IMG/VR virus record: IMGVR_UViG_2585427748_000010
Strand: one strand, 5' to 3'
DNA: 5,599 nt
Source: a virus
Taxonomy: Duplodnaviria > Heunggongvirae > Uroviricota > Caudoviricetes
Shown here: piece by piece, positions 1 to 5,599 of the stretch
How the letters are laid out: each line of letters begins with the position of its first letter
Numbering within the stretch: position 1 is the first letter of the stretch
Made by a program: the position numbers and the translations under genes
Notes under the pieces: model-generated
What the model was told of the DNA's origin: nothing
What the model saw: only the letters and a program-made list of their open reading frames with translations
The model's database searches: none

Positions 1-1073
1 CCTGTTGCCGGTGCGACCATATCGTGCAGGCACCAGTACCTTCAAAACCCATTGCACGCAGTTATGCCGGAGCGGGGCTTCTGGCCCATGTTGTCACCGG
101 GAAATATGCAGACCATCTGCCGTTATACCGCCAGTCAGAAATATACCGTCGTCAGGGAGTGGAGCTGAGCCGTGCCACACTGGGGCGCTGGACAGGTGCT
201 GTTGCTGAACTGCTGGAGCCGCTGTATGACGTCCTGCGCCAGTATGTGCTGATGCCCGGTAAAGTCCATGCTGATGATATCCCCGTCCCGGTCCAGGAGC
301 CGGGCAGCGGTAAAACCCGGACAGCCCGGCTGTGGGTCTACGTCCGTGATGACCGTAACGCCGGTTCACAGATGCCCCCGGCGGTCTGGTTCGCGTACAG
401 TCCGGACCGGAAAGGTATCCATCCACAAAATCACCTGGCCGGTTACAGCGGTGTGCTTCAGGCCGATGCTTACGGTGGTTACCGGGCGTTATACGAATCC
501 GGCAGAATAACGGAAGCCGCGTGTATGGCTCATGCCCGGAGAAAAATCCACGATGTGCATGCAAGAGCGCCCACCTACATCACCACGGAAGCCCTGCAGC
601 GTATCGGTGAACTGTATGCCATCGAGGCAGAGGTCCGGGGCTGTTCAGCAGAACAGCGTCTGGCGGCAAGAAAAGCCAGAGCCGCGCCACTGATGCAGTC
701 ACTGTATGACTGGATACAGCAACAGATGAAAACACTGTCGCGTCACTCAGATACGGCAAAAGCGTTCGCATACCTGCTGAAACAGTGGGATGCACTGAAC
801 GTGTACTGCAGTAATGGCTGGGTGGAAATCGACAACAACATCGCAGAGAACGCCTTACGGGGAGTGGCCGTAGGCCGGAAAAACTGGATGTTCGCGGGTT
901 CCGACAGCGGTGGTGAACATGCGGCGGTGTTGTACTCGCTGATCGGCACATGCCGTCTGAACAATGTGGAGCCAGAAAAGTGGCTGCGTTACGTCATTGA
1001 ACATATCCAGGACTGGCCGGCAAACCGGGTACGCGATCTGTTGCCCTGGAAAGTTGATCTGAGCTCTCAGTAA
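1..1073 (+). CDS. IS66-family transposase (TnpC/orf3 type), 5'-truncated by the window edge
   Basis: The frame is open from nt 3 (codons 3-5, 6-8 ...) to TAA at 1071-1073; the ORF-track start at 24 is an internal GTG. The translation [17 protein letters not shown]...[38 protein letters not shown]...[10 protein letters not shown]...[35 protein letters not shown] matches the conserved IS66 transposase core as I remember it (Cys cluster, LPLYRQ, ADD-PV, NWMF-GS blocks). Confidence 0.9.
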
Positions 1074-1275: not shown

Positions 1276-2571
1276 TTAATTTTTCATTGCTTCGTTATGG
1301 GGCATGGTTGGGGCAAACTCGCTTAACTGTGTATTTAACAAAGCTACCTGTGCATTATTGTTTTCAGACATCCATTTTCCGTATACCTGAAATACCATTT
1401 GCGCATCTGCATGGCCCATCTGGTTTGCTATAAATGCCGGGTTAGCACCAGCTGTCAGCGACCAGCAGGCATAAGTATGTCTCGACTGATATGATTTTCG
1501 ATGGCGGAGTCCGGCACGTTTTATCGCTGCGTCCCACATCTGCCTTATTGAGTCAACGGTAAAATGGTCACCATAATTTTTTACTCTCGCTGACACTTCA
1601 GGTTGAAAAACAAAGGTGCATTTTTGTTTTTCTGTTCTGCCATACTCTCTGAGGTGAACATCAATGATATGCTCTTTGCTCAGTCTCGTTAATGTCATCT
1701 GACTCCGGAGAGCGTCGATTGCTGGCTTAATAAGATGAATGCCCCGATTGGTTCCCGCCTGTGTTTTTGGTACCGTGAAACGGTCTTTTGCTAAATTTCT
1801 CCTGATCATCATTGTTCCATTTTTCAGATCTATGTCCTCCCATCCAAGTGCACACAGCTCACCAGGGCGAACTCCAGTATAAACAGAAACACACCATAAA
1901 TTTTTTGCTTGCTGATTTCTGCACGCATCGATAAGACGGATAAATTCTTCCCGCGAAAGAGGATCCGGAATGGTTCTTGATTCCTTTAATGGCGAGATCC
2001 CCTTAAACGGATTATCTGCCAGGTAACCGTTATCAACACCAAACTGGAACACGGCGTTAAGATTTGTCATGTAATTATTTACAGTTACAGCCGATCTCCC
2101 TGGTTGTGTAACAATATAGTTACTTTTGGGGATCTGGTATCCAGTCAGTAACTCTTTACGAACCTCCAGTAATTTTTCTTTATTAATCGATGAGGCAAGA
2201 TTTTTTTCACCGATTATGCTCAGGATATTTTTGATGACGGCACGGTATGTGTTGAGTGATGTTTTGGCGACTTCAGTTTCTTTCAGTGCCAGAAATTTTT
2301 CAGCCAGTTCTTTTATGGTTAAATCTTGTCGGGCCTCACCAAATTTTTCCAGATTGCGTGAGGAGGGAAACTGTTTTGCATAGTCGAAAACACCAGTTTT
2401 TATTGCGTAACAAACAGAGGAGCGTAGTTCACCTGCAACGCGCCTGTTTTTTGCTGTGTCAGGAACCCCCAGATTTTCCCTGACTCTTACGTCTTTATAA
2501 ACAAACCAGATACGTAATTTCCCTCCATGGTTTTCCACGCCTGTCGGATATTTCATTTCAACTTCTCTCAT
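1276..2571 (-). CDS. int: Phage integrase, tyrosine site-specific recombinase with an N-terminal arm-binding-type domain
   Basis: A 431-codon ORF. The N-terminus MKYPTGVENHGGKLRIWFVYKDVRVRENLG resembles the arm-DNA-binding region of lambdoid integrases. The C-terminal catalytic region has VRPGELCALGWEDID (box I Arg), SRHTYACWSL (His/Arg box) and GHADAQMVFQVYGKW (His and nucleophilic Tyr). The more likely start is the second ATG at 2556 (MKYPTG...), preceded by GAGAGAAG; the first ATG is at 2571. Confidence 0.9.
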   Translation of the reverse strand: MREVEMKYPTGVENHGGKLRIWFVYKDVRVRENLGVPDTAKNRRVAGELRSSVCYAIKTGVFDYAKQFPSSRNLEKFGEARQDLTIKELAEKFLALKETEVAKTSLNTYRAVIKNILSIIGEKNLASSINKEKLLEVRKELLTGYQIPKSNYIVTQPGRSAVTVNNYMTNLNAVFQFGVDNGYLADNPFKGISPLKESRTIPDPLSREEFIRLIDACRNQQAKNLWCVSVYTGVRPGELCALGWEDIDLKNGTMMIRRNLAKDRFTVPKTQAGTNRGIHLIKPAIDALRSQMTLTRLSKEHIIDVHLREYGRTEKQKCTFVFQPEVSARVKNYGDHFTVDSIRQMWDAAIKRAGLRHRKSYQSRHTYACWSLTAGANPAFIANQMGHADAQMVFQVYGKWMSENNNAQVALLNTQLSEFAPTMPHNEAMKN

Positions 2572-2590: not shown

Positions 2591-2842
2591 TCAAGTAAGA
2601 TGACGTCTTGGTCTCGCTGATGCCTGGCGCTCAATCCAGCGATCAATTTCTTCCAGGTTGTAAAAGCATGGACTGTTATCCCATGGCATACCGTCATGAG
2701 CGACATGCTTATATTCCCTTCCTTCCATAAACGATTTTTCCCGGGCCTTTTTTAACGTACCTTTTTTTATTCCTTTCAGCGCAATTAACTGCTCTTCGGA
2801 TACCCATTTGCCGGGAGAGACAATCATGATTACTTCGCTCAT
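2591..2842 (-). CDS. xis: Excisionase (lambda Xis-like winged-helix DNA-binding protein)
   Basis: An 83-codon ORF immediately upstream of int on the same strand, with a 19-34 bp gap. It contains W-x-S/T...EGREYKHVA, which parallels lambda Xis ...DGREYLFHE. Size and position are typical of Xis. Alternative start at 2827 (MIVSPGKW). Confidence 0.75.
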   Translation of the reverse strand: MSEVIMIVSPGKWVSEEQLIALKGIKKGTLKKAREKSFMEGREYKHVAHDGMPWDNSPCFYNLEEIDRWIERQASARPRRHLT

Positions 2843-2914: not shown

Positions 2915-4546
2915 TTAAGAATCAGCCTGACTCGGGATCAGTTTTTGCCAGATAACTGAAACGTATTTTGCCTGGTAACGGGCGTCATCAAGTGCATTAT
3001 GGCGCTCACCTTCGAATGGAATAGCCGTTCTGGCATCGAAGTCTATGGCTTTCCCCAGCTCAACGATTGTGCGTACATCGCGATCGTTGTAGTAACGCCA
3101 CGGGCAGGGGATCCCCTGCCGTTCGTATGAACGGCGCAAAATCGTGTTGTCGAAGTTGGCTCCATTTCCCCAAACCTGAACAAAAAATTCACCGGAGTTT
3201 TCGTCGATAAATTCTCGCAATTGTAACAGTGCATCATCTAACGGGATTTCATCGGTCATAATGGCAGATTGCGCTTCGCGTGATTGCTTAAGCCACCATT
3301 TAATGGTGTCCCGATCAATGACTCCGCCAGCAGTTTCCAGATCGATAGTCTTACTAAATTCCGGTCCCATATCTCCGGTTTGCGGATCGAAAAATATTGC
3401 ACCTATTGAGATGATCGGGGCATCAGGATTTTTTCCCATGGTTTCAAGGTCGATCATTAGATGGTCACACGTCCTGCTGGTGGATGTGATTTCGTGATGA
3501 CCGTTCACCTTAATTGGGTGATCTGCCGTCTCGCCAGTTTCATTATCGCTATTGTGATGCTGATTGCCGCCAGTGTTCTCCTTGTGTGGATGTTCAGCGC
3601 CTTCCATTTCCTCCGGATCATCTTCCTGAACTTCAACCTGATACTCTTCATCGAATGTTTCTTGGTATGTTGCGTCGCCCATCACCGCGCCACAATCAGG
3701 GCAGTTGCCGCCGCCGGTCTGACCGCAGGCGGTGCAGACTTTTTCCACTTCCTGTTGCGCTACTGGTTCAGGCTGTTTCGTTTCTGGCTCGTTTTGTAAC
3801 GCATTTGGACTGTTTTGTTCCGCTTTTTGGTAGTTCCGTTCCGATTCATGCTGGTTCTGGTTCACAGAATCGCGGGTCTGGAGCCCCTTAACCCATTTCG
3901 GATCATTCGGGTCACTAATCCCTTCAACAAATTCACCACGTGATGCAGCAAGCAACTTATCGGCGTCAGGCTGGCTGATATTGGCTGCCTGCATAATTTT
4001 GTTTACTTCGTCAGCGGTAACTTTTATCGGCTCTGGTTGTTCTGAATCTTCAGCGGTATCTACATTTTGCGGTAAGCCCGTGTATGTGCCATTTTTTCGG
4101 GCAAAATATTCTTCTTTTGTGATTTCAGTGGCGCCAGCAGCCAGTGCCTTATCCAGACCAGAGAGTTTGTTTGCGCGACCGTATTTTTCTCCGTCCTTAT
4201 CTGCGAAGAGGAAATAGAACGGCCCCTCACGCTCTACAGATGGTTCAGCTTCCGGCGCGGTTTCATTTTTTGGGATATCAGATACCTCAGTTTCCACTGC
4301 ATCAGTTTGTGTTTCTGATGACTGGAGAACATCAACAGTGCCCAGGTCTGTTTCTTCATTCTCAAACACGCCCTTTGTCGTCAGGTATTCGCAGATATAT
4401 TTGTTCAGTGCTACGGGATCTTTGTGAATGTCGATCGGACGCTCACGGACAAGGCCAAAAATAGTTTGGCGGTCGTAGCGAAGGGCATCAGGCTGTTTGC
4501 GCATTGATGCCGAGATACGCTGAGGTAGCCTGAGTTTAACGGACAC
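2915..4546 (-). CDS. Prophage early-left-region protein with central zinc ribbon and C-terminal DEDDh 3'-5' exonuclease domain; 5' end fused to or truncated by an IS terminal repeat
   Basis: A 543-codon ORF. The C-terminal ~180 residues carry DnaQ-like motifs: Exo I HLMIDLETMG, Exo II VWGNGANFDNTIL, Exo III ERHNALDDARYQAKY (DEDDh type), plus the ...DTIKWW... block seen in Rv2179c-like/phage small exonucleases. Residues 271-285 are CTACGQTGGGNCPDCG (CxxC-x8-CxxC). Long Glu/Pro/Gln-rich linkers and a His-rich patch (EHPHKENTGGNQHHNSDNETGETADHPIKVNGHH) precede the nuclease domain. The first 9 codons (GTG at 4546 down to 4520) lie inside the IS3-family left end, so the annotated start is chimeric. 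Confidence 0.7.
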   Translation of the reverse strand: MSVKLRLPQRISASMRKQPDALRYDRQTIFGLVRERPIDIHKDPVALNKYICEYLTTKGVFENEETDLGTVDVLQSSETQTDAVETEVSDIPKNETAPEAEPSVEREGPFYFLFADKDGEKYGRANKLSGLDKALAAGATEITKEEYFARKNGTYTGLPQNVDTAEDSEQPEPIKVTADEVNKIMQAANISQPDADKLLAASRGEFVEGISDPNDPKWVKGLQTRDSVNQNQHESERNYQKAEQNSPNALQNEPETKQPEPVAQQEVEKVCTACGQTGGGNCPDCGAVMGDATYQETFDEEYQVEVQEDDPEEMEGAEHPHKENTGGNQHHNSDNETGETADHPIKVNGHHEITSTSRTCDHLMIDLETMGKNPDAPIISIGAIFFDPQTGDMGPEFSKTIDLETAGGVIDRDTIKWWLKQSREAQSAIMTDEIPLDDALLQLREFIDENSGEFFVQVWGNGANFDNTILRRSYERQGIPCPWRYYNDRDVRTIVELGKAIDFDARTAIPFEGERHNALDDARYQAKYVSVIWQKLIPSQADS

Positions 4547-4847
4547 TCCTTCCTGAAATAGAATGGCATCAGAAGGAGCTAATAATGAGCAGAAAAACCC
4601 AACGTTACTCTAAAGAGTTCAAAGCCGAAGCTGTCAGAACGGTTCTTGAAAATCAACTTTCGATCAGTGAAGGCGCTTCCCGATTATCTCTTCCTGAAGG
4701 CACTTTAGGACAATGGGTTACCGCCGCCAGAAAAGGGCTCGGTACTCCTGGTTCCCGCACGGTGGCTGAACTGGAATCTGAAATTCTGCAACTGCGTAAG
4801 GCGTTAAATGAAGCTCGCCTTGAGCGAGATATATTAAAAAAAGCAAC
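4521..4847 (+). mobile_element. IS3-family insertion sequence (IS600-like), left end plus orfA, interrupted at 4848 by IS30
   Basis: Starts TGAGGTAGCC... (IS3-family ends are TG...CA); orfA starts 65 bp inside, which is typical spacing. An A7G run at 4836-4843 sits where IS3-family elements carry the programmed -1 frameshift site between orfA and orfB. Identity with IS600 is from memory and unverified. Confidence 0.7.
4585..4847 (+). pseudogene. IS3-family transposase OrfA (helix-turn-helix/leucine-zipper subunit), 3'-disrupted by the IS30 insertion
   Basis: Translation MSRKTQRYSKEFKAEAVRTVLENQLSISEGASRLSLPEGTLGQWVTAARKGL...LESEILQLRKALNEARLERDILKKAT is a typical IS3-group OrfA. After codon ~88 the frame runs into IS30 DNA; the ORF-track tail ...VDSIGQRNSYVKTWGCGGFLNETNIYSRGKSLCF is a read-through of the IS30 left end. 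Confidence 0.8.
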
Positions 4848-4873
4848 TGTAGATTCAATTGGTCAACGCAACA
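4848..4873 (+). repeat. IS30 left terminal inverted repeat (about 26 bp)
   Basis: TGTAGATTCAATTGGTCAACGCAACA at the start of the IS30 segment. The length is taken from the known IS30 structure, not measured against a right end. Confidence 0.65.
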
Positions 4874-4909
4874 GTTATGTGAAAACATGGGGTTGCGGAG
4901 GTTTTTTGA

Positions 4910-5599
4910 ATGAGACGAACATTTACAGCAGAGGAAAAAGCCTCTGTTTTTGAACTATGGAAGAACGGAACAGGCTTCAGTGAAATAGCGAATATCCTGG
5001 GTTCAAAACCCGGAACGATCTTCACTATGTTAAGGGATACTGGCGGCATAAAACCCCATGAGCATAAGCGGGCTGTAGCTCACCTGACACTGTCTGAGCG
5101 CGAGGAGATACGAGCTGGTTTGTCAGCCAAAATGAGCATTCGTGCGATAGCTACTGCGCTGAATCGCAGTCCTTCGACGATCTCACGTGAAGTTCAGCGT
5201 AATCGGGGCAGACGCTATTACAAAGCTGTTGATGCTAATAACCGAGCCAACAGAATGGCGAAAAGGCCAAAACCGTGCTTACTGGATCAAAATTTACCAT
5301 TGCGAAAGCTTGTTCTGGAAAAGCTGGAGATGAAATGGTCTCCAGAGCAAATATCAGGATGGTTAAGGCGAACAAAACCACGTCAAAAAACGCTGCGAAT
5401 ATCACCTGAGACAATTTATAAAACGCTGTACTTTCGTAGCCGTGAAGCGCTACACCACCTGAATATACAGCATCTGCGACGGTCGCATAGCCTTCGCCAT
5501 GGCAGGCGTCATACCCGCAAAGGCGAAAGAGGTACGATTAACATAGTGAACGGAACACCAATTCACGAACGTTCCCGAAATATCGATAACAGACGCTCT
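4910..5599 (+). CDS. insI: IS30 transposase, 3'-truncated by the window edge (first 230 codons)
   Basis: ATG at 4910 with the frame open to the last base of the window. Translation MRRTFTAEEKASVFELWKNGTGFSEIANILGSKPGTIFTMLRDTGGIKPHEHKRAVAHLTLSEREEIRAGLSAKMSIRAIATALNRSPSTISREVQRNRG... matches the IS30 transposase N-terminal HTH region. Missing from the ORF track only because no stop codon falls inside the window. Confidence 0.92.
   Translation, partial: MRRTFTAEEKASVFELWKNGTGFSEIANILGSKPGTIFTMLRDTGGIKPHEHKRAVAHLTLSEREEIRAGLSAKMSIRAIATALNRSPSTISREVQRNRGRRYYKAVDANNRANRMAKRPKPCLLDQNLPLRKLVLEKLEMKWSPEQISGWLRRTKPRQKTLRISPETIYKTLYFRSREALHHLNIQHLRRSHSLRHGRRHTRKGERGTINIVNGTPIHERSRNIDNRRS

Follow-up and report, generated by a model that had tools for sequence, protein, structure and literature searches.

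An IS600-truncated Qin/Tritos-type prophage gene with a RecE-like scaffold and a predicted DEDDh 3'-5' exonuclease domain

Gene content of the window and state of the truncated gene

The window, by which we mean the whole 5,599-nt stretch of DNA analysed here, carries part of a Qin-type prophage with insertion sequences on either side. On the plus strand, positions 1..1073 hold the 3' part of an IS66-family (ISCro1-like) transposase gene (Pfam DDE_Tnp_IS66, E = 1e-103), which lies beyond the int end of the prophage; matching genomes annotate this element as ISCro1, and it is absent from this site in strain ML35. It is followed on the minus strand by an intact int gene for the tyrosine integrase of a Qin-type prophage (1276..2571; Pfam Arm-DNA-bind_2 and Phage_integrase), adjoining rspB in ML35, and by an intact xis excisionase gene (2591..2842; Pfam DUF1233, E = 1.6e-31; PHROG 539, excisionase). 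ORF calling on the window then gave a minus-strand frame at 2915..4546 with a GTG start, encoding 543 aa with an overall pI of 4.5 as calculated from the composition of the translation. An earlier note on this DNA had placed this frame directly upstream of xis-int and had described a DEDDh domain, a zinc ribbon and acidic linkers within it. Both the frame and its anatomy were recovered as described, with xis and int coming next on the same strand.

At its upstream end the gene is truncated by the left end of an IS600 element of the IS3 family (4521..4847, plus strand; IRL TGAGGTAGCC..., orfA from 4585), recognised by an HTH_Tnp_1 match and labelled 'IS600 family' by PGAP. IS911 was also considered as the truncating element and was ruled out in favour of IS600 by alignment with K-12 IS911A. 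Inserted into IS600 orfA is an IS30 copy (4848..5599, plus strand; IRL TGTAGATTCAATTGG, transposase ATG at 4910), identified from sequence, translation and the PGAP IS30 annotation, which runs off the window.

Homology to the intact gene begins at 4520/4521, at the IS600 inverted repeat. Alignment with the intact gene and the IS end showed that the first eight codons of the 543-aa frame (4523..4546, minus strand), GTG start included, come from the IS600 left inverted repeat and are foreign to the gene. The 543-aa frame is a 5'-truncated fragment and not a whole gene: positions 2915..4520 (minus strand) are the 3' remnant, codons 289-823 and the stop, of a Qin/Tritos-type prophage gene for a protein with a RecE scaffold and a predicted DEDDh 3'-5' exonuclease domain, and constitute a pseudogene. 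Approximately the back two-thirds of the intact gene are retained, with codons 1-288 absent; the frame matches positions 289-822 of the 823 in the PHROG 2082 profile, and PGAP calls the fragment a pseudogene, 'missing N-terminus', in ML35. The first 288 codons, native start included, were removed by IS600, which IS30 hit later. The suspicion that the gene was interrupted and had a full-length homologue was borne out by recovery of an 823-aa form; the truncated gene is real and already catalogued, and is not new cargo.

Window positions 2918-4521 showed 0 nucleotide differences from the intact 823-aa gene of phage PhiR42_1 downstream of the junction. In gene order, everything from ydfD through O is lost in ML35 relative to PhiR42_1, and comparison with intact phages showed that the upstream ydfD-dicB-dicA region, with the early-left promoter, is gone, IS600/IS30 standing in its place. 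An SD-like GGAAGGA abuts the GTG start without a spacer, and a consensus-match scan found no sigma-70-like promoter on the minus strand. The frame is open and its catalytic residues are intact, and a fortuitous promoter is conceivable, observations that count against a silent copy. Showing no differences from an intact allele, the truncated allele carries no selection signal of its own. Given its nucleotide identity with an intact allele and the loss of both its start codon and its upstream operon, the window copy is most likely a silent and very recent pseudogene.

Across 5,426 complete E. coli genomes, the intact gene, counted by its intact breakpoint region, was present in ~3,564, and the IS600-cut allele, detected with a junction-spanning probe, in ~37. 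A count of 2,258 genomes for the truncated allele was rejected, as the 80% coverage bar behind it is reached by the int-xis-exo sequence alone. The ydfE pseudogene (b1577) of the K-12 Qin prophage corresponds to the first 255 aa encoded by the same gene, and its chromosomal locus, adjoining rspB, is also the same. K-12 retains codons 1-255, whereas the window retains codons 289-823; truncation in K-12 was by IS2 and also removed xis and part of int, whereas in the window it was by IS600 and left xis and int intact. The K-12 and window truncations are complementary and independent.

Architecture of the intact protein and its relation to RecE

Sequence and structure prediction indicated that the intact 823-aa product is modular. 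Residues 1-288 form a YdfE-type N-terminal module, lost in the window, for which PF27430 and PF27432 are listed in precomputed annotations. The scaffold that follows consists of a three-helix domain, an alpha/beta mini-domain, a KLLAASRGEF...DPNDPKW box and a zinc ribbon, with acidic disordered linkers between them, and the C-terminus is predicted to be a DexA/Rv2179c-type DEDDh exonuclease, in place of the PD-(D/E)XK 5'-3' nuclease of RecE.

In the window, the retained scaffold opens with the three-helix domain (ORF aa 9-63; 4358..4522, minus strand; pLDDT 84-91, dN/dS 0.10), which aligns to RecE aa ~300-350. The small alpha/beta mini-domain, GPFYFLF...RANK...EEYxARKxG, lies at ORF aa 108-156 (4079..4225, minus strand), and the conserved box KLLAASRGEFVEGISDPNDPKWVKG at ORF aa ~190-225 (3872..3979, minus strand). 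This box, with 87% identity to RecE, occurs in nearly all long scaffold relatives regardless of head; no other element of the RecE-like scaffold is shared so widely. A regular-expression search of the translation located the zinc ribbon CTACGQTGGGNCPDC (CxxC-x7-CxxC) at ORF aa 271-285 (3692..3736, minus strand; pLDDT ~65), and a near-identical ribbon, CNACGQTGGDNCPDC, is found in K-12 RecE. The zinc knuckle reported in the earlier note is present, as C271-x2-C274-x7-C282-x2-C285, but its spacer is of seven residues and not eight. From the zinc ribbon to the nuclease runs an acidic and His-rich disordered linker (ORF aa 292-357; 3476..3673, minus strand; dN/dS 0.88), whose counterpart is RecE aa ~540-590. 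Composition agreed with the acidic and His-rich character noted previously (acidic fraction 0.26-0.29; His 0.11 in aa 300-360), and the linkers, this one included, are predicted to be disordered (pLDDT <30). dN/dS was 0.05-0.26 in the folded parts versus 0.67-0.88 in the linkers; by this measure the linker segments evolve almost neutrally.

The DEDDh domain itself, a predicted 3'-5' exonuclease of DnaQ fold (Rv2179c/DexA-like; ORF aa 362-533; 2948..3463, minus strand), was identified by Pfam, by alignment to DexA and by fold search. A DEDD-family match had been predicted at residues ~360-540, and PF16473 (Rv2179c-like) was found over aa 362-533 with E = 1.4e-67 (227.2 bits against a gathering cutoff of 27), covering profile positions 2-177 of 177. 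All five catalytic residues are present: D366 (codon at 3449-3451), E368 (3443-3445), D466 (3149-3151), H516 (2999-3001) and D521 (2984-2986; all minus strand) correspond to DexA D7, E9, D119, H186 and D191, respectively. In the AlphaFold (AF2) model, the nuclease part had a pLDDT of 70-90, and Foldseek matched it with probability 1.0 to the CRISPR DnaQ domain 8H2F, RNase T, Orn and DexA (TM score, target, 0.5-0.68). With its catalytic pentad intact and a DnaQ fold predicted, the earlier description of a complete DnaQ-like DEDDh nuclease holds, and the head is a predicted metal-dependent 3'-5' exonuclease of the DEDDh family.

T4 DexA (exonuclease A; PDB 8KEL/8KEN) was the only solved structure detectable by sequence in the PDB search (E = 1.5e-6). 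Its Pfam family and DEDDh pentad are those of the present domain, over which the two are 27% identical; it is likewise phage-encoded, DexA being a 3'-5' DNA exonuclease (PMC12153337). Unlike the domain studied here, which lies behind a ~640-aa scaffold in a temperate phage, DexA is a stand-alone protein of 227 aa with extra loops; its proposed 5hmC readers W152 and D169 correspond to Y486 and A500 here, the alignment of these loops being less certain. Rv2179c of M. tuberculosis, the founder of PF16473, shares the Pfam family (227 bits) but is a stand-alone exoribonuclease, and the relationship is distant, since the PDB search returned no sequence match to it at E<=0.01. Of the three roles proposed in the earlier note, that of a 'DexA-like nuclease' is the best supported, DexA being the sole PDB structure matched by sequence.

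RecE is a workhorse of recombineering, and we know of no function for its first ~560 residues. The region upstream of its nuclease has been described in print as 'of unknown function' (PMC11611040). Homology with the middle of RecE extends over ORF residues 9-347: residues 11-343 align to positions 317-600 of the NCBIfam RecE profile (E = 9e-77), and in BLASTP residues 262-627 of the full-length protein matched K-12 RecE 278-592 with 39% identity over 366 residues (E = 2e-61), the match ending at RecE 592, just ahead of the RecE nuclease domain. A block of 78% nucleotide identity to recE spans aa 475-622, and the zinc-ribbon block and acidic/His linker are 80-87% identical to K-12 RecE. The zinc ribbon, acidic stretch and His patch, regarded at first as unusual, are common to RecE almost verbatim. 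The claim that the gene does not match RecE survives for the nuclease head, where DEDDh is swapped for PD-(D/E)XK, but fails for the homologous middle region.

Like recE of the Rac prophage (K-12 b1350), the gene lies near xis-int at a late position in the early-left operon, and in both proteins the KLLAASRGEF box, zinc ribbon and acidic/His linker lie directly upstream of the nuclease. The two differ in the nuclease (PD-(D/E)XK 5'-3', PF12684, in RecE; predicted DEDDh 3'-5' here), in the N-terminus (PF06630 in RecE; a YdfE-type module here) and in the recT partner, present in Rac, whereas no recT follows the gene in four phage contexts. Pfam searches of the full-length protein (P0016) found neither the PD-(D/E)XK domain PF12684, which is present in K-12 RecE, nor the Exonuc_VIII N-terminal domain PF06630, which is present in some DEDDh-headed relatives (P0123, P0231). 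In Rac and 666R9, by contrast, recT overlaps the recE gene, which encodes a PD-(D/E)XK head. More widely, scaffold relatives use two alternative N-terminal modules and carry a DEDDh head, a PD-(D/E)XK head, a third type of head, or none. The third head gave only sub-threshold Pfam Rad52_Rad22 matches, and no match in PDB, NCBIfam or PHROG function labels.

Phage context and the Tritos class

The order dicB-ydfD-exo-xis-int was found in PhiR42_1, Tritos, mEp460_ev081 and 640R1, with no recT next to the gene in any of these four phage contexts. Over all 823 aa, the intact form shares 99% identity with TRITO_27, the Rec-module nuclease of Tritos, and both lie in the same context, cI...dicF-dicB-ydfD-exo-xis-int; the window copy differs in being cut by IS600 and in missing the remainder of the module. 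A study of lambdoid Rec modules (PMC12315714, Genome Res 2025) reports DnaQ-like 3'-5' nucleases in such modules and presents Tritos as the prototype of a Rec module with a nuclease and without SAP, SSB or anti-RecBCD, its class being scored positive for nuclease and negative for annealase, SSB and anti-RecBCD. By annotation, the intact relatives match the Tritos class in gene content, having a nuclease and no annealase, SSB or anti-RecBCD in the early-left operon.

Chi sites in PhiR42_1 numbered four on the top strand and two on the bottom strand versus ~1 expected per strand, a weakly informative count that only just comes up to the level set for the Tritos class, and that study reports 7-21 for the class, above the PhiR42_1 figure. 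The earlier placement of the gene among variable accessory cargo is not supported: it sits in the recE position of the early-left operon and is the sole Rec-module nuclease of these phages (PMC12315714).

Possible roles of the intact protein and of the scaffold

We consider it very probable that window positions 2915-4520 are the IS-truncated 3' 1.6 kb of a recE-position gene with a RecE scaffold and a DEDDh head, the following mechanism included. The intact protein would be made from the early-left operon after induction and would act as a metal-dependent 3'-to-5' exonuclease on DNA 3' ends, its nuclease presumably tethered by the flexible acidic linker to the scaffold common to RecE. In phages that appear to lack both an annealase and an anti-RecBCD protein, the nuclease would probably trim 3' tails or process DNA ends, so that host RecBCD/RecA could handle phage recombination; alternatively, it may degrade DNA as T4 DexA does. 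Generation of 3' overhangs for a RecT-type partner is probably not its function. According to PMC12315714, DnaQ-type exonucleases usually inhibit rather than promote recombination, which counts against this mechanism. So does the Chi count of PhiR42_1, below the Tritos-class range, for the cooperation with RecBCD that we infer. RNase T and Orn match the structure just as well, and together with the exoribonuclease name of the family they make an RNA substrate possible.

It is nevertheless improbable in our estimate that the intact protein has RNA or nucleotide signals as its substrate, be it as a 3'-5' exoribonuclease, as a TONDO/ISG20-like factor against RNA phages, or as a counter-defence degrader of cyclic or linear oligonucleotide messengers. 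The sole solved relative found by sequence is the DNA exonuclease DexA, even though PF16473 is named for the exoribonuclease Rv2179c and both RNase T and oligoribonuclease are among the top structural matches; DNA is also the substrate of EcD, the characterised homologue from E. coli. Prophage-encoded DEDDh exonucleases with auxiliary domains do defend against RNA phages, but the TONDO authors set their clade apart from other defence-associated DEDDh domains (PMC13344964). The gene lies in the recE slot, and its scaffold is common to RecE and to proteins with PD-(D/E)XK or sub-threshold Rad52-like heads, all of them DNA-recombination functions. No signalling-defence genes were seen nearby in the phage contexts examined, and for a degrader of nucleotide second messengers, another of the roles first proposed, no evidence of any kind was found.

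Kang et al. 2025 (PMC12153337) describe EcD ('HREX'), a short DexA homologue from E. coli that breaks down T4 DNA and gives cells protection. Alongside T4 DexA it is the closest characterised relative of the nuclease, and it is the only E. coli member of the DexA family of DEDDh exonucleases with a tested biological role. On this model the truncated ORF could still be expressed as a free-standing, host-benefiting nuclease, for example in defence against modified (5hmC) phage DNA, a reading to which we give very little probability. Its 543 codons are open with the pentad intact, and stand-alone ~185-aa versions of the domain do exist in lambdoid phages (e.g. mEp460 gp26, 59% identity), but here the gene has lost its native start, 288 codons and the upstream operon, and the GTG start inside the IS600 repeat has an SD-like sequence without a spacer and no minus-strand promoter match. 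The allele is rare (37/5,426 genomes) and, as an exact match to an intact allele, shows no mark of maintenance by selection. The 5hmC-linked residues of Kang et al. are not conserved, W152 and D169 being replaced as noted. EcD, a short stand-alone protein, is a different paralogue, because its primers encode MIDTET...TIPETY; it is also without the Asp equivalent to the tetramer-forming DexA D90, which is kept here as D438 in an invariant alignment column. A viral contig matched by a 20-mer of the EcD reverse primer held no matching ORF, and the match was set aside as due to chance. For the fragment, the only PADLOC hit was a weak one to a generic CRISPR-associated DEDDh model (E = 1e-5), and none of its defence-system models matched the full-length protein.

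Practically no probability attaches to the label that many records give the gene, an ordinary RecE/exonuclease VIII orthologue that degrades dsDNA 5'-3' in partnership with RecT: phage records do annotate 'exodeoxyribonuclease VIII' and the middle third is truly homologous to RecE, but with the NCBIfam RecE equivalog NF007259, whose curated cutoff is 1269 bits, the fragment scored 259 and the full-length protein 286, PF12684 and PF06630 are both missing from the latter, the predicted head is a DEDDh fold of opposite polarity, and recT is not adjacent in the four phage contexts. At the level of sequence the orthologue reading is already refuted, in line with the earlier note's separation of the protein from RecE.

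A broader reading, which we put forward tentatively and regard as more doubtful than not, is that the RecE-type scaffold is a modular delivery platform with interchangeable DNA-end enzymes, the DEDDh form, which is present in about two-thirds of E. coli genomes and has no annealase partner in the four phage contexts, having a distinct role. In lambdoid enterobacterial phages the heads of such a platform may be 5'-3' PD-(D/E)XK, 3'-5' DEDDh, sub-threshold Rad52-like, or nothing. The distinct role of the DEDDh-headed form could be the preparation of phage ends for the host RecBCD-Chi pathway, or that of a defence or counter-defence nuclease.

In the main, this result clarifies what the window contains: its only 'non-standard' gene appears to be a very common prophage gene in a copy recently killed by an IS. 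It also points to a systematic mis-annotation, many phage records calling a predicted 3'-5' DEDDh enzyme 'exodeoxyribonuclease VIII'. The same scaffold, near-identical zinc-ribbon block included, serves here with a nuclease of predicted opposite polarity and without an annealase, and in Chi-rich lambdoid phages the gene could account for the nuclease-only Rec modules that are otherwise unexplained. Because the heads vary, the role of the scaffold is experimentally approachable via head-swap and scaffold-deletion constructs; if the platform reading were true, understanding it would at the same time account for the N-terminal 560 residues of RecE.

The open reading frame and its domains

The frame on the minus strand at window 2915..4546 comprises 543 codons with a GTG start (hereafter the ORF). 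In Pfam, aa 362-533 scored 227 bits (cutoff 27; E = 1.4e-67) as a complete DEDDh exonuclease domain of the Rv2179c-like type; the earlier note had expected a DnaQ/RNase T/Rv2179c-like match over residues ~360-540. In an alignment of the ORF, T4-type DexA and mEp460 gp26, a stand-alone nuclease relative, all five catalytic positions were invariant, with DexA D7, E9, D119, H186 and D191 corresponding to ORF D366, E368, D466, H516 and D521. A zinc knuckle was present (C271-x2-C274-x7-C282-x2-C285), its spacer being seven residues rather than the eight first reported; the linkers were strongly acidic and the final one His-rich. Excisionase (2591-2842) and tyrosine integrase (1276-2571) genes lie on the same strand, 3' of the ORF. 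The first description of the ORF, as a DEDDh nuclease with zinc knuckle and acidic linkers upstream of xis-int, was therefore correct.

AlphaFold2 modelling (30-sequence alignment, fragment numbering) predicted a three-helix domain (aa 1-55, pLDDT 84-91), an alpha/beta mini-domain (aa 100-148, 82-89), a weakly predicted zinc ribbon (aa 261-283, ~65) and the DEDDh domain (aa 350-535, 70-90), separated by linkers with pLDDT below 30. A Chi site, GCTGGTGG, falls within the gene at the border of acidic linker and nuclease domain (window 3476-3483, + strand); it is one of four top-strand Chi sites in the genome of Escherichia phage PhiR42_1.

Truncation, prevalence and age of the lesion

The ORF matched PHROG 2082, an 823-position profile, from position 289 on only, and tblastn recovered a 99.8% identical protein encoded in a 2,472-bp gene of PhiR42_1; the suspected interruption and the existence of a full-length homologue (Exo) were thus borne out. 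By DNA alignment, homology to the intact gene stops at window 4520/4521, beyond which lies the left inverted repeat of an IS3-family element, so that the GTG start and first eight codons are IS sequence. Alignment with K-12 IS911A together with PGAP annotation identified this element as IS600 and ruled out IS911; IS30 splits it at window 4848. The IS30 insertion lies in IS600 orfA (window 4830-4860, junction 4847/4848, ...ATATTAAAAAAAGCAAC/TGTAGATTC), and in K-12 CP4-6 (L010:2030-2050) IS30A is inserted at the homologous position of the related IS911A (...ATATTAAAAAAGGCTAC/TGTAGATTC). Judged from these junctions, the same target hit in two different IS3-family elements suggests that a conserved orfA site is an IS30 hot-spot.

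The matching arrangement in E. coli ML35 adjoins rspB, in the Qin prophage attachment region, and PGAP flags that copy of the ORF as 'incomplete; missing N-terminus'. The K-12 Qin pseudogene ydfE, truncated by IS2, corresponds to codons 1-255 of this gene; the two types of copy have thus kept complementary halves of one gene. Compared with PhiR42_1, the region 5' of the gene in ML35 consists of IS600/IS30 and adjoining remnants, where intact phages carry ydfD, dicB, the DicA/DicC immunity genes and replication gene O. The IS cluster stands in for ~5 kb of prophage (L001:16086-19130 versus L002:3765-9001), with loss of the exo 5' end, ydfD, dicB, dicF, ydfABC, dicA, dicC, cII, O and part of a DUF977/LygF gene. 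The ML35 Qin remnant therefore lacks the immunity and replication region, with int and xis intact.

At window 1-1073, an IS66-family (ISCro1-like) transposase gene is represented by its 3' part, which ends ~200 bp past the int stop codon; ML35 has rspB there. No complete E. coli genome of the collection gave a colinear match to the whole window; the strain thus has an IS66 insertion at the int end in addition to the IS600/IS30 lesion at the opposite end.

Among 5,426 complete E. coli genomes, 3,564 carried the intact breakpoint region, a single genome having as many as six copies (300-nt probe across the breakpoint, coverage of 80% or more required), and the exo/IS600 junction was contiguous in only 37 (300-nt junction probe). 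A count of 2,258 genomes for the cut allele was rejected as an artefact, since int-xis-exo sequence by itself accounts for 81% of the query used. On the 3' side of the junction (window 2918-4521), the window copy and the intact PhiR42_1 allele are identical at every nucleotide. Rarity and identity together mark the lesion as rare and recent; it says nothing about selection acting on the fragment. The sole sigma-70-like match near the junction was the promoter of IS600 itself, on the opposite strand, and an SD-like GGAAGGA abuts the GTG with zero spacer. The missing promoter match and spacer are weak negative evidence on expression, but fit the pseudogene annotation.

The ORF is most likely a recent IS600-made pseudogene of an abundant and already catalogued prophage gene. 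'3'-5' exoribonuclease domain-containing protein' or 'exonuclease' is the PGAP name for such proteins, PF27430, PF27432 and PF16473 are listed for them in precomputed Pfam, and PHROGs has families covering the full-length form; no experiments on the fusion protein itself turned up in the literature search.

The gene is also prone to internal rearrangement. Five 731-aa alleles (P0001-P0005) are 100% identical to the window fragment and carry an in-frame ~92-residue deletion in the N-terminal module (...EVNAMY/ALWPSD...), and in P0137 (527 aa) an internal deletion fuses the first linker straight to the middle of the DEDDh domain. Between two intact alleles (L002:8137-10608 versus L008:7001-9472), synonymous divergence is uneven by a factor of more than ten: dS is 0.065 in the DEDDh domain and 0.74 in the mini-domain. 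This pattern indicates that phage lineages have recombined within the gene, at breakpoints close to the borders of domains.

A RecE-like scaffold with alternative C-termini

The earlier statement that the protein does not match RecE proved wrong. ORF aa 11-343 aligned to positions 317-600 of the NCBIfam RecE equivalog (E = 9e-77), with total scores of 259 bits (ORF) and 286 bits (full-length Exo), far under the 1269-bit cutoff; in BLASTP, Exo 262-627 was 39% identical to K-12 RecE 278-592 (E = 2e-61). The likeness is concentrated at Exo aa 475-622 (78% nucleotide identity; 80-87% amino-acid identity in 30-residue windows), a block holding the KLLAASRGEF...DPNDPKW box, the zinc ribbon and the acidic/His stretch, and it stops just before the RecE nuclease domain. 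Features first thought unusual are consequently RecE features, and the nuclease head is what differs: K-12 RecE carries PF06630 (N-terminal) and PF12684 (PD-(D/E)XK), whereas full-length Exo has neither. According to a 2023 review, no function is known for the part of RecE upstream of its nuclease domain, the latter being residues 564-866 (PMC11611040). In PV340562, OV696610, LR597641, ON470612 and other phage records, the DEDDh-headed gene is labelled 'exodeoxyribonuclease VIII' or 'ds DNA exonuclease'; this label comes from the RecE-like scaffold and is wrong as to both fold and polarity.

With the scaffold only (ORF aa 9-347) as query, an exhaustive HMMER search across 1.84 billion representatives returned just 125 clusters, many of them fragments. 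Long relatives begin with one of two alternative N-terminal modules, YdfE-type or Exonuc_VIII-type, and end in DEDDh heads, PD-(D/E)XK heads (short RecE-type and a long variant), a ~270-aa head without assignable family, or short tails without an enzyme domain; in P0123 a DEDDh head follows a K-12-type RecE N-terminus. The ~270-aa head (P0166, P0173, P0183, P0192, P0216, P0224, P0239 and P0147, on the same scaffold) is called 'exonuclease' by PHROGs and had no match in PDB, NCBIfam or above-threshold Pfam. Both sequences tested gave sub-threshold Pfam Rad52_Rad22 matches (E = 0.003 and 0.11), and this head is possibly an annealase joined to the scaffold of RecE. In P0158 (703 aa), a K-12-type RecE N-terminus and scaffold, broken in the zinc ribbon, are joined in frame to RecT sequence, making it a natural recE-recT deletion fusion.

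Phage context and possible function

The gene had been taken for accessory cargo, incorrectly. In PhiR42_1, Tritos, mEp460_ev081 and 640R1 the genes are ordered dicB-ydfD-exo-xis-int, and an annealase gene was absent from all four of these DEDDh-headed contexts. In Rac and 666R9, the RecE genes have PD-(D/E)XK heads and overlap recT, and mEp460 and related phages carry the nuclease domain as a stand-alone gene. TRITO_27 of Tritos is 99% identical to the intact form. A 2025 Genome Research survey of lambdoid Rec modules presents Tritos as the prototype with a nuclease and without annealase, SSB or anti-RecBCD, and describes modules with DnaQ-like 3'-5' nucleases as well as proteins termed 'RecE-2' that have no nuclease domain (PMC12315714). 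The structure of DexA was solved by Kang et al. (2025), who showed that EcD, a short E. coli DexA homologue, degrades 5hmC DNA and confers protection from T4 (PMC12153337). EcD is a different paralogue from Exo, and the residues those authors tie to 5hmC reading or tetramer loss do not fit Exo.

Intact Exo, a predicted 3'-5' DNA exonuclease, would be made after induction, with flexible acidic linkers tethering its nuclease to a scaffold that is presumed to dock it to the target that RecE also uses. Because the phage lacks an annealase or RecBCD inhibitor, we propose, tentatively and at rather less than even odds, that Exo trims 3' tails or processes ends for the host RecBCD/RecA pathway, or degrades DNA as DexA does. 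An RNA or nucleotide substrate for the intact protein is improbable, as is a defence role for the fragment. The idea of a modular scaffold would merit more interest if experiments confirm it.
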